Notes under the pieces: model-generated
What the model saw: the letters and a program-made list of their open reading frames with translations, nothing else
What the model was told of the DNA's origin: nothing
The model's database searches: none
Made by a program: the position numbers and the translations under genes
Part shown: one piece after another, positions 1 to 11,487 of the stretch
How the letters are laid out: each line of letters starts with the position of its first letter
Numbering within the stretch: position 1 is the first letter of the stretch
Assembly: GCA_037969395.1 (NCBI GenBank)
Contig: JBBKXJ010000094.1
Location: 1-11,687, forward strand
From: Pseudomonadales bacterium
GTDB lineage: Bacteria; Pseudomonadota; Gammaproteobacteria; Pseudomonadales; JAUIET01
Direction of reading: 5' to 3'
Length of the DNA stretch: 11,687 nt

Positions 1-363
1 TTTGAAATTGTCTTTGACGACTGAGGCACCGTAGTCGACCATGTTGCGGCCGTCGGGTAACTCTTTGCCGTCATACAAACGGGTTAGCACGGCGATATGG
101 CCGGCCTTGACCAGGTACAGAATATACTCCCGGGCCCAGTACAAAAATCCTGACGCCCCGACGAAACCGATAAGGGCACCGTAAACACTACCAACACCTT
201 CGCCATCACCGAAGGAAGTAAAGCCATAGCCAATTGCGCCACCCCCGCCGGTGGCAACGATGTAAAGCAGGGCGATGCCAAAATACACCAACATGCGTAC
301 CACAATGTAGGGCAGGGTGCGCCGCATGGCACCGAGAGCGTTGGTAATGCTGAAATCCCACAT
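1..363 (-). CDS. Partial (C-terminus off the left edge) small membrane protein with glycine-zipper-like segments; family not identified
   Basis: Reverse-strand ATG at 363-361 is preceded by AAGGGAA (revcomp of 366-372). The frame stays open to position 1 and reads MWDFSITNALGAMRRTLPYIVVRMLVYFGIALLYIVATGGGGAIGYGFTSFGDGEGVGSVYGALIGFVGASGFLYWAREYILYLVKAGHIAVLTRLYDGKELPDGRNMVDYGASVVKDNFK... Hydrophobic and Gly-rich stretches (GxxxG-like) indicate transmembrane helices. The track ORFs 84..332 and 206..430 are alternate frames of this same locus. Confidence 0.55.
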   Translation of the reverse strand, partial: MWDFSITNALGAMRRTLPYIVVRMLVYFGIALLYIVATGGGGAIGYGFTSFGDGEGVGSVYGALIGFVGASGFLYWAREYILYLVKAGHIAVLTRLYDGKELPDGRNMVDYGASVVKDNFK

Positions 364-641
364 AATAATTCCCTTGTGGTCGGAGTGACGTTAAACCTTC
401 ATGGGTAAAGGAGGGTCGTTGTGATTGCAAAGAATTGTGGATGAAAATGCGCAGCAGGTAAATTCCACTGAAGTGCTAGTACTTTCGTGTTATCAGCCTA
501 TTTCTGCCGGGGCTTCGCACGCCTCTGGTTTAAGCGGGGCTGGTGCAAGGCGATACTCCAGATTGGCAGCCATGGCTTGGGTTTTTTCTGCACTGCCTGA
601 ACAATTAAGCGCGCTGTAGAGATAACGCTGTTTTTTTGCAC

Positions 642-710
642 TCTTCTCGCCATCTATAGTTTTAAAAAGCCCATTCGCACGTCTTCTCAGCATCTATAGT
701 TTTAGAAAGC
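642..710. repeat. Two copies of a 29-bp imperfect direct repeat (26/29 identical, 40-bp period) upstream of the cluster
   Basis: 642-670 is tcttctcgccatctatagttttaaaaagc and 682-710 is tcttctcagcatctatagttttagaaagc. Each copy contains the small palindrome CTATAG. The repeat sits about 80-150 bp upstream of the first cluster gene. Confidence 0.45.
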
Positions 711-738
711 TCAATCACACATCAATCAGTCACGATTA

Positions 739-776
739 TATTACATGTAATAAATGTTTACATATTACATGTAATA
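739..776. promoter_or_regulatory. Twin identical 14-bp perfect palindromes (TATTACATGTAATA x2, centres 24 bp apart); candidate operator/promoter of the cluster
   Basis: 739-752 and 763-776 are both TATTACATGTAATA, and each is perfectly self-complementary. The spacer is aatgtttaca. The first copy overlaps a possible -10 (TATATT 737-742), with a weak -35-like ATCACA at 714-719. The second copy ends 16 bp before the ATG at 792. Confidence 0.45.
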
Positions 777-791
777 AGATATATTTTTACC

Positions 792-1415
792 ATGAATAAA
801 AAATCATCCGCATATTACCAGCGCGAATTCCGTAAACGACTACGCGAACAAGGGCTTGTGAAGAAGGAAGTGTGGATCCATCCCGACCACGCCAAACAGC
901 TACATGCGCTCGAAAAGCAGCTGCGCACTCGGTCGGGGCCCAAAGGCACAGATGGAGGTAATACCATGAATGACAAAATCAAAACCTGGAACACCGTGGA
1001 TTTGCACCAAGCTCTGCAGGGCTCAGAACTGTTCACTTCCGGCAGCGCAACAACAGAGCTTATCGATGGTGTAGAACCCAGCATCCACATCGTGATGCGC
1101 GAATTTGGTGATCTCCCCATTTTTCTCACCGTGGTCGGTGAGCAAATCGTCGCCGAATCGGTGCTGTGGTCGATTAACGAGGTAAAGGATGTTGCGGCAT
1201 TTAACGACACGGTATTGCGCACCCACAAATATTTCCCGCTGTCGACCATTAGCCTGGATAACGTCGGCGGCATCGACTACTACCATATGTTCGGCGCGCT
1301 CAGTGCGTCATCCATTCTGGAAAATATTGTTTTTGAAATAGAGGTGCTGGCGGCAAACGTGATTCACGCGACAGAAGCATACAGCGAATTTTTGACAATC
1401 CCCGTGGAATCCTGA
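792..1415 (+). CDS. yjfI: DUF2170 / YjfI-family protein with an extra basic 58-aa N-terminal segment (alternative internal start at 966 with a strong SD)
   Basis: The ORF is 207 aa. Residues 59-207 (MNDKIKTWNTVDL...LPIFLTVVGEQIV...FPLSTISLDNVGGIDYYHMFGALSASSILENI...) match my recollection of the E. coli YjfI / DUF2170 family (LPI..T, PLST.SL and GAL motifs). GGAGGT at 954-959 lies 7 nt before ATG 966. No SD is visible before ATG 792. The stop TGA at 1413-1415 overlaps the SD of the next gene. Confidence 0.75.
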   Translation: MNKKSSAYYQREFRKRLREQGLVKKEVWIHPDHAKQLHALEKQLRTRSGPKGTDGGNTMNDKIKTWNTVDLHQALQGSELFTSGSATTELIDGVEPSIHIVMREFGDLPIFLTVVGEQIVAESVLWSINEVKDVAAFNDTVLRTHKYFPLSTISLDNVGGIDYYHMFGALSASSILENIVFEIEVLAANVIHATEAYSEFLTIPVES

Positions 1416-1425
1416 GGAGTACAAC

Positions 1426-2127
1426 ATGAATATTTGGGCGAAAATGATCACTGCATTACGCGGTGGAGTTAACGAAGCCGGCGAAGCGATCATAGACACG
1501 CAAGCCTTGCGTATTCTGGATCAGGAGGTGCGCGATGCGGCCGAAGAGCTGAAGGCATCGAAAGACAGCCTGGCGACAATCATCGCCAGACAAAAGCTGG
1601 GCGAAGAGAAAGTGGTCAATCTCAAAGCCGAAATCGATGCGCACGAAGGCTATGCCGTAAAGGCGTTGGAAAAGAAAAACGAGGCACTGGCGCTGGAAGT
1701 GGCGGGCAAAATCGCCAACTTCGAAGCAGCGTTGCATACCGAGGAGTCCGCCACCCAGGGCTATAAGGCAAGCGCAGACAAGTTGAAGGCCGCAATCAAA
1801 CAGGCTGAGTCAAATATTCGCCGCCTGAAGCAACAGGTCGACACGGTCAAAGCCACTGAAAGCGTGCAGCGCGCGCAAGCCGCAGTGTCGGCACGCCACA
1901 GTGGCTCCAATTCAAAAATGCGAACCGCGATGGATTCGCTGGAGCGTATCAAGGAAAAGCAGGCGCTAAGCGCAGCGAAAATGAATGCCGCGGCGGAGCT
2001 TAGCGATGAGCTTGCCGAATCGTCATTGCAAACTAAACTCGAAGAGGCCGGTATCGTTGCCTCGGGCAGAAGTGCTGATGAGATTTTGGCCAAACTAAAA
2101 CAAAAGACGCAGCCGCCTGCAGAGTAG
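1426..2127 (+). CDS. yjfJ: PspA/IM30 (phage-shock protein A / Vipp1 / ESCRT-III-like) family protein, YjfJ-type paralogue
   Basis: The 233-aa protein is helical and coiled-coil throughout. The N-terminus MNIWAKMITALRGGVNEAGEAIIDTQALRILDQEVRDAAEELKASK... is typical of PspA/IM30. The block VDTVKATESVQRAQAAV resembles the YjfJ block VVKATEAMQRAQQAV as I recall it. SD GAGGAG at 1414-1419 sits 6 nt upstream of the ATG. The gene is translationally coupled to the yjfI-like gene. Confidence 0.88.
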   Translation: MNIWAKMITALRGGVNEAGEAIIDTQALRILDQEVRDAAEELKASKDSLATIIARQKLGEEKVVNLKAEIDAHEGYAVKALEKKNEALALEVAGKIANFEAALHTEESATQGYKASADKLKAAIKQAESNIRRLKQQVDTVKATESVQRAQAAVSARHSGSNSKMRTAMDSLERIKEKQALSAAKMNAAAELSDELAESSLQTKLEEAGIVASGRSADEILAKLKQKTQPPAE

Positions 2128-2203
2128 ATGCGGCAGCTTGCCTCAGCGGTTCGAATTAACCCACTCAGCGCAGGCTAAATAAAACAACAAAAGGAGGCCA
2201 GTG

Positions 2204-2905
2204 ATGTTTGCAATTCTTCTAACTGAAGGCATGGATCCTTTCTACCAGAACATCGCGTCTTTCCCAACCGCTGTTTTTACGTTGTTGCTGGCGGTGTGCG
2301 TGCTGTATTGGCTATCCGCGGTGCTGGGTCTGGTCAGTGTTGACGTGCTCGATTTTGACATACCCGAATCGGTTGGCGCGGAAGACCTGAATGCTGATAG
2401 TGGCGCGTCGGGTCCCGATGTACTGGCGGGATTAATGCTGAAATTCGGTTTGTACGGTGTGCCGGTGACCATCATCGTTTCCATTTTGTCGTTGGTCGGC
2501 TGGCTGCTCTGCTACTACCTGGTGCACTTCAGTCTTGGCTACGCTCCCGAGTGGCTGGCTGCAAGCTGGGCGCGCTATGTTATTGGCTTGCCGCTGCTGG
2601 TGGGAAGTTTATACGTTGCAGTGCTGATCACAGCGCAACTCATCAAACCCCTGCGCCCGTTGTTTCTCAAGTCAAGCCAGGAAACCGTGAAGTATGTGCT
2701 GGGGCAGACAGCCATCGTGCGCACCTCAAGGGTGGATAACGACTTCGGTGAGGCGACGCTGGATGACGGCGGTGCCGGCTTGATACTAAAAATCCGCACT
2801 GCGGGCGATGTGCGATTCGTTAAAGGCGACCGCGTTGTCGCGATAGAAAAAATTGCGGGCACGGATTATTACCGCGTGGTCTCCGAACAAGAGTTTGCCA
2901 GCTAG
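2204..2905 (+). CDS. yqiJ: YqiJ/DUF1449-type NfeD-like inner-membrane protein (N-terminal TM helices plus C-terminal OB-fold beta-barrel)
   Basis: The protein has hydrophobic TM segments (FPTAVFTLLLAVCVLYWLSAVLGLV; VPVTIIVSILSLVGWLLCYYLV; VIGLPLLVGSLYVAVLITAQLI). Its C-terminus (GQTAIVRTSRVDNDFGEATLDDGGAGLILKIRTAGDVRFVKGDRVVAIEKIAGTDYYRVV) is typical of the NfeD/YqiJ OB-fold. AAGGAGG at 2191-2197 lies 6 nt before ATG 2204. The GTG at 2201 offered by the track is too close to the SD. The gene is immediately upstream of a flotillin, as in E. coli yqiJK. Confidence 0.8.
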   Translation: MFAILLTEGMDPFYQNIASFPTAVFTLLLAVCVLYWLSAVLGLVSVDVLDFDIPESVGAEDLNADSGASGPDVLAGLMLKFGLYGVPVTIIVSILSLVGWLLCYYLVHFSLGYAPEWLAASWARYVIGLPLLVGSLYVAVLITAQLIKPLRPLFLKSSQETVKYVLGQTAIVRTSRVDNDFGEATLDDGGAGLILKIRTAGDVRFVKGDRVVAIEKIAGTDYYRVVSEQEFAS

Positions 2906-2972
2906 AGAACAGCAATCCGCACCAATACGACACTTATACCAATAGATATTACAAAAGGAAAAGGAGAGAGAA

Positions 2973-4853
2973 ATGGCTGATTTAACGGTATTAATGCCCA
3001 TTGTCACCGGGGTCGCAATATTCTTTGTGATTCTGCTAGGCCTGGCTGGCTTGTTCAAAGCCTTTTACTACAAGGTTGAACAAGGCACTGCGCTAATCGT
3101 CAACGATATGAGCGCCACGCCGAAAGTACACTTCACCGGCGCGCTGGTATACCCGATTATCTACAAAAAAGAGCTGATGAAAATTTCGCTTATCACGCTT
3201 GAGGTAGACCGGCGGGGAAAAGACGGGTTGATCTGCCTCGACAATATGCGCGCCGATATTACCGTGGCATTCTACTTGCGAGTCAACGAAACACCGGAGG
3301 ATGTGTTGAAAGTCGCCAAGTCCATTGGTGCCACAAGGGCCTCCGACAAGGAAGCCGTGCATGACCTGTTTGCCGCCAAGTTTTCCGAGGCGCTAAAAAC
3401 GGTGGGCAAGCTTATTGAATTCGTGCAGTTGTTCGAAAATCGTCAGCAATTCCGCGAGAAGATAATTCAAGTGATTGGTGAAGACCTTAACGGCTATGTG
3501 CTGGAAGATGTCGCCATAGATTACCTGGAGCAAACGCCTAAAGCCGCGCTCGATTCCAGCAATATTCTCGATGCTGAAGGTATCAAGAAAATTACCGAAT
3601 TGACCGCCGAACAGAACGTGCGCACCAATATTCTGGAGCGTGACGAACAGCTGGCGATCAAAAAGAAAGACGTAGAAACCGTGGAAGCCATGCTGGAATT
3701 GGAGCGCCAACAAGCGGACGCCGAAGCACGGCAAGAGCGGGAAGTGCTCACCATTCGGGCACGCGAGGAAGCAGAAACCAAGAAAGTTCAGGAAGAGGAA
3801 CGCTTGAAAGCGGATGCGGCAACCATTCGTGTTGACCAGGACCTTATGGTGCAGACCGAAAATCAGCAGCGCGAGATCGAAGTAGCAGGGCAGAACCGTG
3901 AGCGCGCAGTCGCCGTTGAGCAGGAGAAAGTCACGCGGGCGCGCGACCTGGAAATTGTGTCACGCGAACGCGAAGTGCAGGTGGAGCGTGTGCTCGCCGA
4001 GAAAGCCGTTGAGGTTGAGAAGAAAGAAATCGCCAATGTGATTCGCGAGCGTGTGGCGGTAGACAAAACCGTTGCTATCGAAGAAGAGCGCATCAACGAA
4101 GTGCGCGAAGTGTCGGATGCGGACCGCAAGAAACAAGTACAGGTGTTGGCCGCAGAAGCCAATGCGGAAGAGCTGAAAGTCAAGGAGGTGACTGCAGCGG
4201 CAGCAGAAGAAGCGGCGGCGAAGCACAAAGCCACCGAAATCACCACGCTTGCCGAAGCTAATCTGGAAGCGGCGGATAAGGATGCCAAGGCGCAGATCAG
4301 GCTGGCCGACGCCATGCAGGCAGAGAAAGCCGCACCTGGATTAGCCGACGCCCAGATTCAACTCGCCAAAGCCGATTCCTTGCAGAAGGAAGGCTTGGCT
4401 GAAGCGCATATCATTACTGCCAAAGGTGAGGCTGAGGGTAGCGCCGCGAAACAAATCGGCATGGCCGGTGCTGAAGTGACGCGCGAGCAGTTCAAGGCTG
4501 AAGCCGACGGCTTGGTCGACAAATTCGAAGCAATGAATTCAATGAGCAGTCAAGCGCGCGAACACGAAGAATTCCGAATGACGCTGGAGACTGCCTTCAA
4601 GGAAGCGATTGCCACCATCGAAGCCGGTAAGGAAATCGCCAAGGAAAATGCGGAAGTGCTCGCCACCGCGCTCGAGAAAGCCAAGATCGATATCGTTGGC
4701 GGCGAAGACCACTTCTTCGACAACTTCGCCAAATCCTTGTCTATCGGCAAGGCGGTCGATGGTCTGGCCAACAAGAGTGAAACCATCAGCAGACTGCTGG
4801 ATAAAGTGATGACCAAAGACGCGGGCGAGGATAAGGCTGCAAATCAGCCCTAA
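2973..4853 (+). CDS. yqiK: Flotillin-family SPFH/band-7 protein (YqiK-like): N-terminal TM anchor, SPFH domain, long Glu/Ala-rich coiled coil
   Basis: The 626-aa protein has an N-terminal TM helix (LMPIVTGVAIFFVILLGLAGLF). The SPFH region (GTALIVNDMSATPKVHFTGALVYPIIYKKELMKISLITLEVD...ICLDNMRADITVAFYLRVNE...) is followed by an EA-repeat-like coiled coil (ERQQADAEARQEREVL..., AAEANAEELKVKEVTAAAAEEAAAKHKATEI...). SD AAGGAG at 2961-2966 sits 6 nt before the ATG. Confidence 0.9.
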   Translation: MADLTVLMPIVTGVAIFFVILLGLAGLFKAFYYKVEQGTALIVNDMSATPKVHFTGALVYPIIYKKELMKISLITLEVDRRGKDGLICLDNMRADITVAFYLRVNETPEDVLKVAKSIGATRASDKEAVHDLFAAKFSEALKTVGKLIEFVQLFENRQQFREKIIQVIGEDLNGYVLEDVAIDYLEQTPKAALDSSNILDAEGIKKITELTAEQNVRTNILERDEQLAIKKKDVETVEAMLELERQQADAEARQEREVLTIRAREEAETKKVQEEERLKADAATIRVDQDLMVQTENQQREIEVAGQNRERAVAVEQEKVTRARDLEIVSREREVQVERVLAEKAVEVEKKEIANVIRERVAVDKTVAIEEERINEVREVSDADRKKQVQVLAAEANAEELKVKEVTAAAAEEAAAKHKATEITTLAEANLEAADKDAKAQIRLADAMQAEKAAPGLADAQIQLAKADSLQKEGLAEAHIITAKGEAEGSAAKQIGMAGAEVTREQFKAEADGLVDKFEAMNSMSSQAREHEEFRMTLETAFKEAIATIEAGKEIAKENAEVLATALEKAKIDIVGGEDHFFDNFAKSLSIGKAVDGLANKSETISRLLDKVMTKDAGEDKAANQP

Positions 4854-4867
4854 AACAGCGCGCTCAA

Positions 4868-4901
4868 CGCTGGCAGGCGGTTGATCCTGTCAGCGCTTTT
4901 T
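4868..4901 (+). terminator. Candidate intrinsic terminator/attenuator between the flotillin gene and the giant ATPase gene
   Basis: CGCTGGCAGG (4868-4877) pairs with CCTGTCAGCG (4886-4895) as a 10-bp GC-rich stem with one G-U wobble in RNA and an 8-nt loop. It is followed by C then TTTTT (4897-4901). It lies 15 nt after the flotillin stop and 26 nt before ATG 4927. The U-run is short (5), so termination is probably partial. Confidence 0.5.
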
Positions 4902-4926
4902 GTCATCTGGTTTATGGGAGATTGCA

Positions 4927-7900
4927 ATGGCTGAACAGCCTGGCAAAGACGCGCTTGTTGAAGCGGCCGTCGCGGAGGGTGGCGCGTACGACGTCATTAG
5001 AAAGCGCCTTGAAGAGCACGGTCGCCAGCTCGAGGAAAAGACACAACAAGTGAATGCAGCGCGTATTGCCGAAATTGGCAGTACCGATATGCAAACCGTT
5101 GCGCGTGTGAGAGTCAGAACGGAACACAACAGCGTGGCGCGCGATATCGTTCAGGTGGGCGATTATCTGCTGTTCGGTTACAACGTATTTATTGGTTTAA
5201 AAAAAGAAGTCAAAGTGGAAGATGTTTTTTCACTGTTTGCGTTAACCGAGAGCAACGGTGAATATACTATCGAAGCTGCGCCCGCCGAAGTAGATTTTTT
5301 GCAACAGCAGCGCTTCAGTTCGGATTTTCGCGAGCTGTATCAATACTACAAGCATACCCGCTTGATCCAGCTGACGGTTAATAACGGCAAGTTATTGGCC
5401 GGTTTTCAGATTGGCGAAAAACTGGAAGATATTCGTGTGTTTCGCTGGTCGGTATCTCCTGACGGTAAACAGGTTGAATATATTGATAACCGCGGCGAAC
5501 GCGACATTCAATTGCCGCCTGCCTTTGACTTCGAATGGCAAGCGGCAGGCAGGGAAGACTTTGTCAATGGGCGTCACCCGCATATCAATATTTTGGACCG
5601 TCTGTTTGTTGATACGCTGGGTGGCACTTTATCCATAAAAGTCGAGGATAACACCGAGTCCGGCCAGGGCATTTATAGTGAGCCGGTGGAAGAGCAAAAC
5701 CAGTCGCTGGATGATGTTGACGTGCAGTATGCGCTGGTTGGCGACCTTGTTCTGTTGCGCGTATTGCCGTATCGCGAGCAGCAGTGGCGGCATTTTGTGT
5801 TCAATACCAATAGTGAGCAGATTAATCGCATCGACGCGATTGGTGAATCGTGCGTTCAGCTGCCGGAAGATCACGGCATCATATTTCCTGGCGGCTATTA
5901 CTTACAAAATGGCGAATACAAGTCCTTCGATGAAGACATAGTCGGGCTGAAGTTCAAGCGCATGCTTAAATCGCCTAACGGCGAGGATGTGCTGTATATT
6001 TTTTATGAACCGGCAGATGGCGTGGTCGCGCTGCTGCCGTATAACCTGATTAATCGGAGCCTGCAAAACCCTATTATCAGTCATGGTTACGCGCTGGCGG
6101 AAGACGGCAGGCTGGTGGTATTCACCTCGGAAGAAGAGCCAACCCGGGTACATCCGATGCAGGTATGGCAAACGCCGTATACCTCGCAAGACTTTGCCGA
6201 TCGCATGCCGGTACAGCAAACTTTCTTCGGCCGCATCGGCAATTCGGCCATGGTGCGCGGTGTCTCCGATCTGTTTAGTATCGCTCGCCAGATACGCGAG
6301 CAAAATGTCTCCGTCGCACACTATGAGAAACTGGGTAAAGCGGTGGCGCGCGCCTTCGACGCCTACTACTGGTTAGACAGCCCGGAGCTTGATGATATCG
6401 ACGCAACGCTTAAAGAGGTTGCGCAAACATCAGAACTGGTCATCGACGAGTTTGAAAAAGTCGATGCGATTCGGCGTCAGTCCGCCACGGCGATGGCCGA
6501 GGCAGAGCAGGCACAACAAGCGATTATTACCGGTATAGGCACGGCCACCTGGGAAAAAGTTGCGGATTTCGTCGAGTCTCTTGATCGCGTTCGCCACCAG
6601 CGTGGCCATCTGGCAACCATCAGCGAGTACCGCTATATCGATACCAACCGTATCGCGGAGCTGGACGCGGAGCTGGTTGCAAGCGCGGATGAGCTGGGTA
6701 CAAAAACCGTCGAATTCCTGGCCGACGAGCAATCGCTGGCGCCTTATTTGCAGCAGATCGCCGAGCTGGACCAGCAAATCGAGGCGGCAAACTCGGTTGC
6801 ATTGTTAAAGCCGTTGATTGAAACCATGGATGCGATTGCCCGCGGCCTGGATTTACTGTCGGAGTTAATGGCGACGCTTAAAGTCGATGACGCCACGGTA
6901 AGAACCCGTATCATTGACGCCATCTCTGCGGTTTACGCCAAGCTGAATCAAACCCGGGCCAGTGCGAAACATCGGCAGGCAAATCTTGGCTCGGCCGAAG
7001 CGGTTGCGCAATTCTCCGCCCAGTTCAAACTGTTTTCACAAAGTATTAACAACGCGCTCGGCTTGGCCACTGATCCGGACCGCTGCGAGGAGCAGCTGTC
7101 GCGACTGTTGGTGCAGCTGGAAGAACTCGAAAGCCAGTTTGGCGAGCACGAACAATTCCTCGCCGATATCATTGAGAAGCGTGAGGAAATCTATGACACC
7201 TTCGAGTCGCACAAACAAACGCTGATTGAGCAGCAACAGCGCAAGGTGCAAGTGCTGGTCGATGCAGCCCAGCGGATGTTAGGCAGCATTGAAAAGCGCA
7301 GCAATAAATTTACCGCAGCGGATGATCTGAATACCTATTTCGCCGCTGATGCGTTGGTGCTGAAGATCAAGGAGCTAACCCAGCAACTCGGGCAACTCGG
7401 CGGCAATGTGCAGGCCGATGATATTGGCTCGCGCTTCAAAATGATCAAGGACCAGGCCTTGCGCTCGCTGCGCGACAAAAGCGATATCTTTATCGAGGGC
7501 GGCAAGGTCATCAAGCTCGGTCCCAGGCATCGCTTCAGTGTCAACACCGATGAACTCGATCTATCCATCGTGCCGTATCAGGAGGGGCTGGCCGTGCATT
7601 TGGCCGGCACGCAATACTTCGAAGCCATTAACCATCCAGACCTGCTGGCGCTAAAAGACTACTGGAACCTGTCGCTGGAGTCGGAGAGCGACGTCGTCTA
7701 CCGCGCCGAATACCTGGCCTTTCAATTTATTCAAGCGCTGCGTGCCAACGATGCCGGTGTGGATCAGGCAGACGTTGAAAACGCCCTGCAGTCCGAGCAG
7801 CAAATGTATGACCTGGTTCGCGCCTTCGCTACCCCCCGCTACAAAGAGGGTTACGAAAAAGGTATTCACGACTACGACGCAGCCAAATTACTGATGGCGT

Positions 7901-10185
7901 TATTACCCTTGCTGAACACCGCCGGGTTGCTGACCTATCTACCTCGGCAGCGCGCCCTTGCCCAGGTATTCTGGGTGGCGTTCAGTAGTGCTACAGAGAA
8001 CAAGGCCAGGGTGGAAAGCTGGCCGCAACGCGCGGCATCGGCTTATGCTATGCGCGAACTATTGCACAGCTCAGCCAGCATTTCCCTGGTGGAGAACGAA
8101 GTTGTACAGGCGATAACGCAATTCAACGAACAACATGCTTTGGTGAGTAGTGAGCTGGATTTGCAGCAAGCGGCTGTTTATCTGGTTGGCGAACTGCAGC
8201 AAGGCACAGCGGAATTTGTCACCACCCAATACGCCACACAGTTGCTCGATATGTATCGACTCGCCCTGGATGAGCACACGATAGCAGAGCATCAGCGATC
8301 ACTGCGCAACTTACAGGGCAACTATGTGCAGCAGTGGCGACTCAGCGAGGCTTGGTTAGAAGCGCTGTTGAATAAAGAGGAGAAAGAAGGCAAAAACCTA
8401 GAGCTGGTGAATGTCTTAAGGCATTACGTTCCCGAGGCCGTTGCTGTGCTGAATCTCGGCGAGGCAATAGTGCGTCGCCACGCAGACATAAAACTACACC
8501 TTACGGTGGACAATCTAATGGGCGCGCATGCGCGCATTCAGAACCGCAGCATTTTGCTTGCCGTGGATACTTTCATGCAGCGCCTGCGCCAGCATGTGCA
8601 AATTGTTGTGCCTGCTTACCAGCACTACCTGCGGCTCAAGCATGAGATTGCCAACCACGAACGCGAGGCCTTGCGGCTTGAGTCGTTCAAAGCGCAACCA
8701 TTAAGCTCTTTCGTTAGAAACAAGCTTATCGATCAGGCGTATCTGCCGATCATCGGCGATAATCTCGCCAAGCAAATCGGCACGGTTGGCGACAGCAAGC
8801 GTACCGATCTCATGGGCTTGCTGATGATGATCTCGCCACCCGGATACGGCAAGACAACACTAATGGAATACGTGGCGAACCGACTTGGTCTGATCTTTAT
8901 GAAGATCAACTGTCCGGCGCTGGGCCACAACGTGCTGTCGCTGGACCCCGAGCAGGCACCCAATGCGACCGCGCGGCAGGAACTGCAGAAGCTCAACCTT
9001 GGGTTGGAGATGGGCAATAACGTGATGTTGTATCTGGATGATATACAGCATACCAATGCCGAATTTCTGCAAAAGTTTATCTCCCTGTGCGACGCCACCC
9101 GGCGTATCGAAGGGGTGTGGCGCGACAAGGCAAAAACCTACGATATGCGCGGCCGGCGGTTTTGCGTTGTTATGGCCGGTAACCCGTACACCGAATCGGG
9201 CGAAGCGTTCAAGGTGCCGGATATGCTGGCCAACCGTGCGGACATTTATAACCTTGGCGACATCCTCGGCGGCATGGATGAGCAGTTCGCGCTTAGCTAT
9301 ATAGAAAACAGCTTGACCTCGAACGCCGTATTGGCGCCGCTGGCGGTACGCGAAATGGGTGATGTGTACAAGCTGGTGGATATGGCCAAGGGTTTAAATG
9401 TACCCACAACCGACCTCAGCCACTCCTACAGCAGCGCCGAAATCAATGAGATTACCGGTGTGTTGAAAAAACTGTTTGTGATTCAGGACGTAGTGCTAAA
9501 AATCAATCAGCAATATATTGCGTCTGCCGCCCAGGACGATAAGTACCGGGTAGAGCCAGCATTTTTGCTGCAAGGTAGCTACCGTAATATGAATAAAATG
9601 GCGGAGAAAGTCTCTGCCGTGATGAACGATGCAGAGCTGGCGCAATTGATAGACGACCACTACCAGGGCGAAGCTCAGTTGCTGACCTCGGGTGCCGAAG
9701 GTAATTTGCTCAAGCTGGCCGAACTCAGAGACGAACTGAGCGAGCAGCAGGCAGCGCGTTGGCAGCAGATAAAAACTGATTTTCTGCGCAATAAGGCTAT
9801 GGGTGGTGATTCTGATGACATTGGCGGCAAGATCAACGCGCAGCTTGCCGATCTCGTGCAAAGCGTTCAGGCTCTGAATGTTAATCGAGACGGCGCGGCA
9901 GGGGAGGCGGCAAACCAATCGAACGCGGCACTAGCTACCAGTATCGAAAAGCTGCTGTCAGGCTTGCAGGAAGCACGACCGAAAATCGAAGTCATCAATC
10001 AACCGGTGCCGGAAATGGCCGCCGTGCTTTCCGTGTTGAACGAAACCATCGACAACACGTTGTTTCCTATTTTGCGCGCGATGGATAAAAAGATCGACAT
10101 AGACCTGCGCACGCAGGAGAAAATGCATTCTATATCCGAGCAGTTGCGAGTCTTGCAAAGTAAAATAGATCCCGGCGATATTTAG
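4927..10185 (+). CDS. Giant 1752-aa multidomain protein with one MoxR/AAA_5-type AAA+ ATPase module (aa ~1290-1480) set between a beta-rich N-terminal region, a long helical region and a helical C-terminal tail; likely the type often auto-annotated as 'DNA repair ATPase'
   Basis: The ORF is uninterrupted from 4900 (TTG) to the TAG at 10183-10185. ATG 4927 is the preferred start, with GGGAG at 4915-4919 at 7-nt spacing. Walker A is ISPPGYGKTT (nt 8842-8859). Walker B is MLYLDDIQH (DD at 9037-9042). Sensor-1 is VVMAGNPYTE (9175-9186). The arginine-finger-like motif DMLANRADIY matches the MoxR/RavA/McrB/dynein-type AAA_5 signature (xxQNP ... LLDRF). No VWA/MIDAS motif, nuclease motif or second AAA module is seen. 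The N-terminal ~460 aa are beta-rich (repeated G..L..G/DG-type turns). About 800 aa are predicted helical or coiled-coil. Confidence 0.88.
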   Translation: MAEQPGKDALVEAAVAEGGAYDVIRKRLEEHGRQLEEKTQQVNAARIAEIGSTDMQTVARVRVRTEHNSVARDIVQVGDYLLFGYNVFIGLKKEVKVEDVFSLFALTESNGEYTIEAAPAEVDFLQQQRFSSDFRELYQYYKHTRLIQLTVNNGKLLAGFQIGEKLEDIRVFRWSVSPDGKQVEYIDNRGERDIQLPPAFDFEWQAAGREDFVNGRHPHINILDRLFVDTLGGTLSIKVEDNTESGQGIYSEPVEEQNQSLDDVDVQYALVGDLVLLRVLPYREQQWRHFVFNTNSEQINRIDAIGESCVQLPEDHGIIFPGGYYLQNGEYKSFDEDIVGLKFKRMLKSPNGEDVLYIFYEPADGVVALLPYNLINRSLQNPIISHGYALAEDGRLVVFTSEEEPTRVHPMQVWQTPYTSQDFADRMPVQQTFFGRIGNSAMVRGVSDLFSIARQIREQNVSVAHYEKLGKAVARAFDAYYWLDSPELDDIDATLKEVAQTSELVIDEFEKVDAIRRQSATAMAEAEQAQQAIITGIGTATWEKVADFVESLDRVRHQRGHLATISEYRYIDTNRIAELDAELVASADELGTKTVEFLADEQSLAPYLQQIAELDQQIEAANSVALLKPLIETMDAIARGLDLLSELMATLKVDDATVRTRIIDAISAVYAKLNQTRASAKHRQANLGSAEAVAQFSAQFKLFSQSINNALGLATDPDRCEEQLSRLLVQLEELESQFGEHEQFLADIIEKREEIYDTFESHKQTLIEQQQRKVQVLVDAAQRMLGSIEKRSNKFTAADDLNTYFAADALVLKIKELTQQLGQLGGNVQADDIGSRFKMIKDQALRSLRDKSDIFIEGGKVIKLGPRHRFSVNTDELDLSIVPYQEGLAVHLAGTQYFEAINHPDLLALKDYWNLSLESESDVVYRAEYLAFQFIQALRANDAGVDQADVENALQSEQQMYDLVRAFATPRYKEGYEKGIHDYDAAKLLMALLPLLNTAGLLTYLPRQRALAQVFWVAFSSATENKARVESWPQRAASAYAMRELLHSSASISLVENEVVQAITQFNEQHALVSSELDLQQAAVYLVGELQQGTAEFVTTQYATQLLDMYRLALDEHTIAEHQRSLRNLQGNYVQQWRLSEAWLEALLNKEEKEGKNLELVNVLRHYVPEAVAVLNLGEAIVRRHADIKLHLTVDNLMGAHARIQNRSILLAVDTFMQRLRQHVQIVVPAYQHYLRLKHEIANHEREALRLESFKAQPLSSFVRNKLIDQAYLPIIGDNLAKQIGTVGDSKRTDLMGLLMMISPPGYGKTTLMEYVANRLGLIFMKINCPALGHNVLSLDPEQAPNATARQELQKLNLGLEMGNNVMLYLDDIQHTNAEFLQKFISLCDATRRIEGVWRDKAKTYDMRGRRFCVVMAGNPYTESGEAFKVPDMLANRADIYNLGDILGGMDEQFALSYIENSLTSNAVLAPLAVREMGDVYKLVDMAKGLNVPTTDLSHSYSSAEINEITGVLKKLFVIQDVVLKINQQYIASAAQDDKYRVEPAFLLQGSYRNMNKMAEKVSAVMNDAELAQLIDDHYQGEAQLLTSGAEGNLLKLAELRDELSEQQAARWQQIKTDFLRNKAMGGDSDDIGGKINAQLADLVQSVQALNVNRDGAAGEAANQSNAALATSIEKLLSGLQEARPKIEVINQPVPEMAAVLSVLNETIDNTLFPILRAMDKKIDIDLRTQEKMHSISEQLRVLQSKIDPGDI

Positions 10186-10233
10186 TTCTATTGTGTTAAC
10201 TCGACCAGCGGCACAGAAAGGGGCAGAGAGGGG

Positions 10234-11301
10234 CTACGCTAGTGAATACCATGTACCACGCCCAGCACCATGCCGTGCAATAAACCCATTTTCCTGCAGA
10301 GTTTTCATGTGGTCTTTGATCGTGTTTCGACTTTTTCCTGTTGCTGCTACAGCGTCGCTAATTGTGACCCTGCTGTGTTCACGGGCAATTTCCAGAATTT
10401 GAACTGACAGCTGCGGCAAATCGCCGAAAATCAGGCGTTCACGTTCTATTTTTACTGCAAGTTTTTCTTTTTGCGTGGTCAGTGACAGGAGGAAGTAAGT
10501 TACCCACGGTTGCCAATCAGGAGAATCGGTTCGAATAGTAGCTTGTGTTCGGCGTAGTGCCAGATAGTAGGATTCTTTGCCTTGCTCAATCACGCTTTCC
10601 AATGAGCTATAGGGCACAAAGACATAACCGGCTTTCAGCAGTAGCAGCGTGGTCAATATGCGCGATAGCCTTCCATTGCCGTCCTGAAACGGATGGATCT
10701 CTAAAAAGACAACAGTGAAAATAGCGGTAATGAGCAGCGGGTGCGGGTGCTTTTCAGAGTGGGCTTTATTTGTCCATGCGATCAGTTCGTCCATTAAGCG
10801 CGGCGTATCAAAAGGCGTTGCGGTTTCAAAAATCACGCCGATGCTTTTTCCGTCTGGTGAAAAAGCCTCAACGCTATTGGATAGTGTCTTGTATTGCCCG
10901 CGATGTCGTGAATCTTTGTCAGAATGTTGCAATAGCTCAGCATGGAGTTGTTTGATGAAATTTTTCGTCAGTGGTATGTTCTGCCAGTGCTCGATCACCG
11001 TTTCCATCGCGGCGGCATAACCAGCCACTTCCTGCTCGTCCCGACTTTCAAAAGATTGAATTTCCAGGTTTGATAACAGTTTTTCAATGTCGCGATTTGA
11101 GAGCTTTGCGCCCTCTATTCGAGTGGAAGAACCAATGCTTTCAATTGTTGCAACATGCCGCAAGTTGGACAGACGCTCCGGCGCAATTCGCCCAATAGCC
11201 TGCCAAGCGCCCTTGAATTGATCCAGTTCGGAGATGAGCGACAATGTATGATGAGTGATTGCAAGCGTTTCAATATTCACTTCTGCATTAGCATATGACA
11301 T
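10234..11301 (-). CDS. Fic-family (AMPylator-type) protein, class II with an N-terminal inhibitory helix motif, and a C-terminal winged-HTH-like tail
   Basis: The catalytic Fic motif HPFQDGNGRLSR is encoded at 10660-10695 (revcomp reads CAT CCG TTT CAG GAC GGC AAT GGA AGG CTA TCG CGC). The (S/T)xxxE(G/N) inhibitory motif STRIEG is encoded at 11110-11127. ATG at 11301 is the preferred start. The track uses an upstream in-frame TTG at 11313. The gene is convergent with the giant ATPase gene, leaving a 48-bp gap. Confidence 0.88.
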   Translation of the reverse strand: MSYANAEVNIETLAITHHTLSLISELDQFKGAWQAIGRIAPERLSNLRHVATIESIGSSTRIEGAKLSNRDIEKLLSNLEIQSFESRDEQEVAGYAAAMETVIEHWQNIPLTKNFIKQLHAELLQHSDKDSRHRGQYKTLSNSVEAFSPDGKSIGVIFETATPFDTPRLMDELIAWTNKAHSEKHPHPLLITAIFTVVFLEIHPFQDGNGRLSRILTTLLLLKAGYVFVPYSSLESVIEQGKESYYLALRRTQATIRTDSPDWQPWVTYFLLSLTTQKEKLAVKIERERLIFGDLPQLSVQILEIAREHSRVTISDAVAATGKSRNTIKDHMKTLQENGFIARHGAGRGTWYSLA

Positions 11302-11487
11302 GCTGATATCCAATTAGCCATCCATTCTCATCCGTTTAATGATGGCATGACAATACCCGATTGTCCACCCGTTTCCATCCAATTAAACCGAGTCGAAAAA
11401 CGCAGATCGGAACAGCTTTCAATGGGCATGATCTGTTTATTCACTTTGAAACGAAAACCATGGCCTGTCTCTGGCTGTGTTGTTGCA

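Follow-up and report, generated by a model that had tools for sequence, protein, structure and literature searches.

A bac-type operon joining PspA, flotillin and a giant AAA+ ATPase in an uncultured gammaproteobacterium, with a candidate operator and a conserved N-terminal module of BacA

The bac ('biofilm-associated cluster') locus of Pseudomonas aeruginosa was described as PA3732-PA3729, which are its first four genes (Macé et al. 2008, PMC2587700). It was extended to bacABCDEF by reverse transcription polymerase chain reaction (RT-PCR) across every junction in strain PA14 (Wallart et al. 2024, PMC10948618). BacB is induced by osmotic shock, and bac mutants have defects in biofilm formation, swarming, rhamnolipid and virulence (PMC2587700, PMC10948618). 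In a bacA transposon mutant BacB to BacF accumulate 6- to 13-fold, and the structure of BacA has been solved (PDB 8q8o; PMC10948618). Ravi et al. (2024, mSystems, PMC11237479) described an operon class that combines CesT/Tir-PspA, a TM-band-7-flotillin, YqiJ/YuaF and a novel AAA+ protein, with an optional PLD gene, and found abbreviated flotillin-YqiJ-ATPase operons to be more widespread. Here we describe an 11,687-nucleotide (nt) stretch of contig JBBKXJ010000094.1 (assembly GCA_037969395.1), referred to as the window, whose five-gene operon is the bac operon of P. aeruginosa. It is a new member of the published class and not the discovery of the arrangement. We consider it moderately probable that the window holds a five-gene (bacABCDE) bac-type envelope-stress operon whose products work by the mechanism proposed below for BacA to BacE. 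New here are an N-terminal module of BacA, its candidate operator, an apparently leaderless sigma-70-type promoter and a probable second BacA isoform.

The five open reading frames (ORFs) are co-oriented on the + strand over window positions 792-10185, as an earlier note on this DNA had reported with the same coordinates, and are separated by gaps of 10, 76, 67 and 73 nt:

792-1415, + strand: bacA-like gene (g1), 207 amino acids (aa), with a basic N-terminal module (aa ~4-46) joined by a variable linker to a DUF2170/CesT-like domain (aa 63-201)
1426-2127, + strand: bacB-like gene (g2), 233 aa, PspA/IM30 of the ESCRT-III superfamily, YjfJ subfamily
2204-2905 (ATG; GTG at 2201), + strand: bacC-like gene (g3), 233 aa, YqiJ/YuaF-type short NfeD with three predicted transmembrane (TM) segments and a C-terminal OB-like domain
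2973-4853, + strand: bacD-like gene (g4), 626 aa, YqiK-type flotillin with an N-terminal TM segment, an SPFH domain, a long coiled coil and a highly conserved C-terminal region of ~130 aa
4927-10185, + strand: bacE-like gene (g5), 1752 aa, giant AAA+ protein, with an ATG after a GGGAG Shine-Dalgarno sequence in an ORF that opens at a TTG at 4900

The same note had named the products as DUF2170, PspA, YqiJ/NfeD, flotillin and a giant ATPase, and Pfam, NCBIfam and BLASTP to Escherichia coli agree. Its view of the locus as a distinct arrangement, not recognised as a characterised system, does not hold, as the arrangement is the named bac operon (PMC2587700, PMC10948618) with a published architecture (PMC11237479).

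The P. paraeruginosa locus (L049) encodes five collinear proteins that are 43-61% identical to the window proteins, with a PLD gene directly after them; its ATPase, in the same operon position, is 55% identical to g5 over the full length. The g1 product matches Pfam DUF2170 (177 bits) and the NCBIfam equivalog 'biofilm formation regulator BacA' (312.5 bits, cutoff 300). The match to P. aeruginosa BacA (PDB 8q8o, 146 aa; E=1.8e-40) is confined to g1 residues 63-201. The g2 product matches PspA_IM30 (148 bits) and, along its whole length, shares 36% identity with E. coli YjfJ (E=7e-36). Nothing in Pfam scores above threshold for g3 (YqiJ_N, E=0.03), and YqiJ_N matches 5 of 15 members of the g3 family. 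The protein can be aligned over its entire length to both E. coli YqiJ and a DUF1449-annotated Hymenobacter protein, and BLASTP gives a weak match to the YqiJ C-terminus (9e-5). Together with strict synteny, these weak but consistent sequence signals point to a YqiJ-like identity, and the P. aeruginosa orthologue PA14_16160 has been termed a short NfeD (PMC13086221). The g4 product has no Pfam match, and its homologues, named YqiK or flotillin at source, carry no precomputed Pfam domain. BLASTP against E. coli YqiK gives a 463-aa alignment at 29% identity (E=7e-40) that takes in the TM segment, the SPFH domain and the coiled coil. By synteny, g4 is PaFlo3 (PA14_16180); a 2026 study identifies BacD as PaFlo3 and BacC as a short NfeD (PMC13086221).

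The P. aeruginosa operon (PA3732-PA3727 / PA14_16140-16200) resembles the window in its first five genes, their order and orientation, and in a promoter palindrome at -27. It differs in ending with bacF (PLD/HKD), where the window instead has a convergent Fic gene, and in the sigma-54 promoter given in the literature, compared with the conserved sigma-70-like elements seen here. The component list of the class of Ravi et al. is identical, and our survey reproduces both the class and the abbreviated triad. The main text of that paper does not mention a rhomboid gene, the BacA N-terminal module or the operator. In E. coli, YjfI/YjfJ are homologous to g1/g2 and YqiJ/YqiK to g3/g4, but the two pairs are unlinked and there is no giant ATPase. 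The earlier description of yjfIJ followed by yjfKLMC, and of yqiJK without a neighbouring ATPase, is accurate.

The contig in NCBI is of metagenomic origin, and its source is an uncultured gammaproteobacterium related to the Cellvibrionaceae. Window 1-10185 is 96.6% identical to a 55-kb contig of assembly GCA_003704775.1, the closest relative (L086). Relatives beyond it share 50-65% identity and belong to the Cellvibrionaceae, to gammaproteobacteria of the Oceanospirillales type and to Pseudomonas.

The start of the operon has a compact and conserved regulatory layout. A single strong promoter is predicted 5' of g1 and none internal to the operon, and the following features lie at or within bacA:

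738-777, no strand: candidate operator pair, two exact 16-nt copies of ATATTACATGTAATAA at 738-753 and 762-777, spaced 24 base pairs (bp) apart
757-785, + strand: sigma-70-like promoter, TTTACA-17 nt-TATATT, 10 of 12 matches, the window's best promoter match
954-968, + strand: internal start of a candidate short isoform, Shine-Dalgarno GGAGGT at 954-959 and in-frame ATG at 966 (Met59), at the linker/DUF2170 boundary

Each copy of ATATTACATGTAATAA is centred on a perfect palindrome, TTACATGTAA (741-750 and 765-774). Among the 48 loci with a long BacA, i.e. one that carries the N-terminal module, 46 have T[TC]ACATGT[AG]A in the promoter zone (93 sites), and only 1 site lies elsewhere in these loci. 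Loci without long BacA have ~2 chance sites in 769 kb. Perfect TTACATGTAA sites number 51 in the 1.75 Mb of related loci, and every one is found immediately 5' of bacA, against ~1.7 expected by chance. The palindromes thus co-occur only with a BacA that carries the N-terminal module; E. coli YjfI lacks both the module and an upstream TTACATGTAA site. When the 48 loci are aligned on the start codon, they share a constant order of operator, -35 TTGAC, operator in the 17-nt spacer, -10 TAnnnT, ~7 nt and ATG. The window's -10 element ends 6 nt before the ATG at 792, and the first bacA ATG has no preceding Shine-Dalgarno sequence in 45 of the 48 loci, so the mRNA from this sigma-70-like promoter is apparently leaderless. 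Two 40-nt tandem direct repeats that are 83% identical (window 642-721) lie just 5' of the operator region.

The first ~45 residues of long BacA (KSSAHYQREYRKRLREQGLVKKEVWILPENA..L..EK.LR) are the most conserved part of the protein across the 48 loci, which span several families. Codon-position entropy in this module is 0.58, 0.38 and 1.35 at positions 1, 2 and 3; because the variation is codon-periodic, we conclude that the module is translated and that purifying selection acts on it. The published 146-aa P. aeruginosa BacA and the 8q8o structure lack it, and the bac literature (PMC2587700, PMC10948618) does not mention it; all long-form orthologues encode it. E. coli YjfI is 32% identical to g1 from residue 65 onward. 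Judged from these sequence patterns, long BacA is likely a direct autorepressor that binds the palindromes through its N-terminal module, which fits the published de-repression of BacB to BacF in the bacA mutant.

An internal in-frame Met preceded by a Shine-Dalgarno sequence of at least 5 nt is present in 41 of the 48 long-BacA loci, despite the variable protein sequence of the linker. It corresponds to the start of the annotated and crystallised P. aeruginosa form. This suggests a second, short BacA isoform without the N-terminal module.

We looked for co-variation of the operator variants TTACATGTAA and ATCACATGTGAT with N-terminal residues within Pseudomonas and found no simple pattern. 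Three loci with a DUF2170 protein that lacks the module (L054, L073, L074) have another palindrome, TGACATATTATGTCA, i.e. (T)GACATAWTATGTC(A), that overlaps a TTGACA -35 element. This different palindrome implies another regulator in the short-DUF2170 branch.

The operon genes were compared across 87 loci, comprising 80 genome loci with relatives of the ATPase (L001-L080) and seven more distant ones from PLSDB, by scanning all loci with hidden Markov models built from the window families. Loci with 2.8 kb or more of sequence 5' of the ATPase gene counted as informative (n=79). The gene-neighbourhood survey suggested in the earlier note finds conserved linkage rather than sporadic adjacency: a YqiJ-like gene and a flotillin gene lie directly upstream of the ATPase in 78 of 79 informative loci, and a co-oriented DUF2170-PspA pair is also upstream in 53 of 79, with a variant form in three more. 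The exception to the triad is a Methyloprofundus metagenome-assembled genome (L014), in which neither YqiJ-like nor flotillin genes are found within 10 kb upstream. The conserved module spans four phyla: Pseudomonadota, Actinomycetota, Deinococcota and Bacteroidota. The triad occurs without PspA in Streptomyces, Nonomuraea, Deinococcus, Proteus, Vibrio and others, including ~22 proteobacterial loci without PspA nearby. In Bacteroidota, a Hymenobacter replicon shows all five genes in the same order, the first of them annotated as 'molecular chaperone Tir'. The five-gene form of the window is found in 14 of 87 loci. The YqiJ-like/flotillin/ATPase triad is thus almost obligatory and the DUF2170-PspA pair a frequent addition. 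Therefore, the ATPase is best seen as a flotillin/NfeD-associated machine, not a dedicated PspA disassemblase.

The P. fluorescens megaplasmid pQBR103 (L082, NC_009444.1 84464-105611) carries yjfIJKLMC-like genes fused to the triad in one ten-gene array. This array comprises YjfI, PspA and a rhomboid protein (encoded after the PspA gene), homologues of yjfK, yjfL, yjfM and yjfC (polyamine-linked), and YqiJ-like, flotillin and ATPase genes. It is followed by an MvaT-family gene.

What follows the ATPase differs among the loci: downstream of it, both rhomboid and PLD/HKD genes occur in 20 of the 87 loci, only a rhomboid gene in 12 and only a PLD gene in 6. Counting a few copies elsewhere in or beside the operon, rhomboid (PF01694) is found in 38 of 87 loci; the PLD/HKD hydrolase (PLDc_2) is found in 29 of 87. 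Examples of genes 3' of the ATPase in this rhomboid/PLD-type variable region are:

L001, 13449-14012
L049, 15228-15935
L002, 15307-15840

A gene for a ~180-aa zinc-ribbon protein is downstream in five loci. The window contains neither a rhomboid or PLD (bacF) gene nor a remnant of one.

BacE has the following features on Pfam domain and motif analysis:

5029-6369, + strand: DUF3686 (g5)
6733-6981, + strand: DUF7902 (g5)
~8821-9192, + strand: AAA+ core (g5)
8836-8859, + strand: Walker A, PPGYGKTT (g5 aa 1304-1311)
9028-9042, + strand: Walker B, LYLDD (g5 aa 1368-1372)

DUF3686 scores 660 bits and DUF7902 99 bits; the ATPase region matches AAA (28.3 bits, cutoff 21.2) and AAA_5 (27.0 bits, cutoff 22). 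Ravi et al. (PMC11237479) describe the N-terminal DUF3686 region as a beta-propeller. Walker A (GYGKT), Walker B (LYLDD) and the sensor residues do not vary among relatives. A profile search of PDB sequences with the whole ATPase found no match, and with the AAA region only ~35 aa around Walker A align (p97/Cdc48, E ~1e-3). The AlphaFold model of aa 1230-1752 has a mean predicted local distance difference test (pLDDT) score of 67. Its top Foldseek matches in the PDB are the MoxR-family proteins NorQ and CbbQ (weak, E=5e-4, target TM-score ~0.4), followed by RuvB and MCM. The model therefore weakly suggests that the fold is nearest to MoxR-type NorQ/CbbQ and not to the classical Vps4/p97 clade. 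The MoxR/AAA_5-type label given earlier keeps this weak support from the 27-bit AAA_5 match and the NorQ/CbbQ fold. A Pfam scan detected no VWA domain, as in a partner of MoxR-family AAA+ proteins, in any window protein, and no MIT, Vps4, protease, nuclease, helicase or DNA-binding domain in BacE. An HExxH protease motif was not found in BacE either.

We propose the following mechanism. A sigma-70-type promoter would give a leaderless bac mRNA. Long BacA, dimerising via its CesT-like domain, would repress the operon by binding both TTACATGTAA palindromes, which lie beside and within the -35/-10 spacer. The CesT-like domain may also bind the PspA-like BacB, and BacB that is not engaged at the membrane could feed back on transcription, as PspA does on PspF. 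An AlphaFold2 prediction gives the BacA-BacB complex a probability of 0.98 (PMC13092808). The short BacA isoform, which would lack the putative DNA-binding end, could be a pure chaperone or modulator. BacC and BacD may assemble at the inner membrane into an SPFH-NfeD cage or microdomain, and BacE, with its MoxR-like AAA+ core and large DUF3686/DUF7902 N-terminal region, could act on this flotillin platform by ATP-driven assembly, disassembly or client extraction. PspA would be recruited to the platform as a membrane-sealing polymer.

There are precedents for such a platform, which serve as analogies: SPFH cages organise partners that include AAA+ proteases, and a Bacillus subtilis SPFH protein is reported to link PspA to the membrane (PMC8581546). 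The window resembles the HflK/C-FtsH, QmcA-YbbJ and FloA-NfeD systems in co-encoding an SPFH protein, an NfeD partner and an AAA+ machine; it differs in that BacE has no detected protease domain and appears MoxR-like. Mitochondria have a hub of SLP2 (SPFH), PARL (rhomboid) and YME1L (AAA+), and relatives of the window operon that also encode a rhomboid protease echo it, by analogy only. The operon shares with classical Psp (pspF-pspABCDE) and with archaeal and eukaryotic ESCRT-III/Vps4 a PspA/ESCRT-III-family polymer encoded beside an AAA+ protein, and the feedback of free PspA on transcription known from Psp is plausible here. BacE, however, belongs neither to the NtrC-type enhancer-binding proteins nor to the Vps4-type MIT-AAA proteins, and the regulator here is apparently a repressor (BacA) and not an activator. 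No Pfam or NCBIfam match to PspF, PspB or PspC was found among the six window proteins.

Tentatively, we suggest as a possible reading that the flotillin/NfeD cage, BacE and the PspA polymer, joined in relatives by rhomboid and PLD, are one ATP-driven membrane repair or remodelling machine. BacE would then use energy to regulate either an ESCRT-III-like system of bacteria or their counterpart of the mitochondrial SPFH-rhomboid-AAA+ hub. A bifunctional, two-isoform BacA (autorepressor and PspA chaperone) would set its expression.

Two features lie on either side of the ATPase gene:

4868-4903, + strand: terminator-like hairpin between the flotillin and ATPase genes, with a 10-bp stem, 7 G-C pairs and the tail CTTTTTGT
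10234-11313, minus strand: Fic gene with a winged helix-turn-helix domain, SoFic-like in PADLOC, convergent, 3' of the ATPase

An attenuator between the flotillin and ATPase genes was considered as a family feature and rejected, since no more than ~12 of 81 related loci have a comparable hairpin. In this lineage the hairpin may be a specific attenuator that reduces ATPase expression.

The Fic gene is a swapped cassette. Similarity to the closest relative breaks off precisely with the ATPase stop codon and starts again at window position 11483, which delimits a swapped segment at 10186-11482. The relative's Fic gene (L086 17275-18327) has the opposite orientation and 54% protein identity to that of the window. 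Since none of the 80 genome loci has the window's Fic gene, it belongs to the local surroundings rather than to the system. On the + strand ~190 bp upstream of bacA, window 543-605 holds a 21-codon Fic relic (GDTPDWQPWLGFFLHCLNN*) that is 76% identical to the C-terminal part of the relative's Fic protein; in this lineage Fic-derived sequence thus lies on both sides of the bac operon. A partial gene on the minus strand (window 1-360), cut by the left window edge and divergent from the bac operon, encodes a glycine-rich membrane protein. An Rfam scan was negative.

Several other readings of the locus were weighed. BacE could be a functional Vps4 analogue that disassembles or remodels BacB polymers with ATP, the flotillin and NfeD proteins being only its membrane platform. 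PspA does belong to the ESCRT-III superfamily, and the DUF2170-PspA pair upstream of the triad (53 of 79 loci and three variants) recurs in the Bacteroidota locus with a different CesT-like chaperone. Ravi et al. (PMC11237479) suggest ATP-dependent membrane remodelling for associations of PspA with AAA+ proteins, and a 2025 review states that PspA of bacteria has no known regulator of the Vps4 type, which leaves this role vacant. Yet flotillin and YqiJ-like genes are kept in 78 of 79 loci, while ~22 loci, as well as Streptomyces, Nonomuraea and Deinococcus, have no PspA nearby. The modelled AAA+ fold is closest to MoxR-type NorQ/CbbQ, and a Pfam search detected no MIT domain. We therefore regard the Vps4-like role as doubtful. 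This also divides the membrane role proposed in the earlier note: membrane stress or remodelling is the consensus reading, but its Vps4 analogy is weakened by the PspA-less loci, the MoxR-like fold and the undetected MIT domain.

Mere adjacency, with the yjfIJ-like pair, the yqiJK-like pair and the ATPase as independent units, would agree with their separation in E. coli and with the 67-76 nt gaps and the strong terminator-like hairpin 5' of g5 in the window. That hairpin is present in only ~12 of 81 loci, however, and the genes keep their order and orientation from family to family and phylum to phylum. In PA14, RT-PCR spans every junction and the downstream products rise together in the bacA mutant (PMC10948618). 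A lack of common function is accordingly quite unlikely. We give little credence, and consider it very improbable, that the operon is an anti-phage or anti-toxin defence module, an idea also raised in the earlier note, that senses membrane attack and responds with protection or abortive infection. Three observations fit this idea: the SoFic-like gene (PADLOC 173 bits) is directly downstream and its different, oppositely oriented counterpart in the closest relative is hotspot-like, a copy of the module is on megaplasmid pQBR103, and defence genes flank ~2 of 20 surveyed loci. But the window's Fic gene is in 0 of 80 genome loci, and no meaningful PADLOC match was found for g1-g5. PADLOC-DB 2.0 matches to g2 and g5 amount to coiled-coil (LmuB and JetC, E at least 1.8e-4) or P-loop (IetA, E=6e-4) noise. 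Among 136 flanking ORFs from 20 spread loci, ~2 loci have defence genes (an Nsn set; an AriA/Old/GajA-type ATPase), and the rest of the flanks are ordinary metabolic or regulatory, mostly housekeeping genes (LysR regulators, amino-acid biosynthesis, AhpC, MscS). No relative was found on IMG/VR viral contigs, and the reported phenotypes are biofilm, swarming and osmotic stress (PMC2587700, PMC10948618). The name 'DNA repair ATPase', which g5 relatives bear in most database records, finds its only support in the inherited name of Pfam DUF3686 and NCBI records. Pfam detected no nuclease, helicase or DNA-binding domain, the search of PDB sequences returned no repair protein, the full-text literature searched does not mention DUF3686, and the synteny with membrane proteins is strict. 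A role in DNA repair is extremely unlikely.

The operon and the mechanism that we propose for BacA to BacE also face contrary evidence. The hairpin at 4868-4903 is the best terminator-like site of the window and lies within the operon. The BacE Walker B motif has DD, an invariant Asp in place of the catalytic Glu (DE) that is usual in AAA+ proteins. The N-terminal module of BacA has no significant match to a known DNA-binding family and resembles repressor modules only below threshold (Pfam PF11455 MazE-like, E=0.05; NCBIfam UrfF, E=4.5e-4), a profile search of the PDB gave nothing better than E=0.23, and the AlphaFold monomer of the module is unreliable (pLDDT 30-56). Published work proposes a sigma-54 promoter for bacA (PMC2587700, PMC10948618). 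Upstream of P. paraeruginosa bacA we find only loose GG-N10-GC matches to a TGGCAC-N5-TTGC-type site, one of them inside the N-terminal coding region. As the bacA mutant was made by transposon insertion, part of the increase in the downstream proteins could stem from the insertion itself. Deletion of paFlo3 (bacD) in PA14 lowers biofilm by only ~20% (PMC13086221), which gives the flotillin arm little phenotypic weight in the conditions tested.

The bac arrangement already has a name, a partial phenotype and a published comparative description, and the module is most plausibly membrane-related, with the Vps4-like and defence readings as weaker options. Our results suggest that the P. aeruginosa bacA gene model and its proposed sigma-54 promoter deserve re-examination. 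The N-terminal module, the restricted palindromes, the apparently leaderless promoter and the probable second isoform turn BacA from a vague 'possible regulator' into the subject of specific experiments. According to the 2025 review, bacteria have no known ATP-driven regulator of PspA/ESCRT-III polymers; BacE, which in four phyla is linked to flotillin and in many loci to PspA as well, is an obvious candidate to test for this role.

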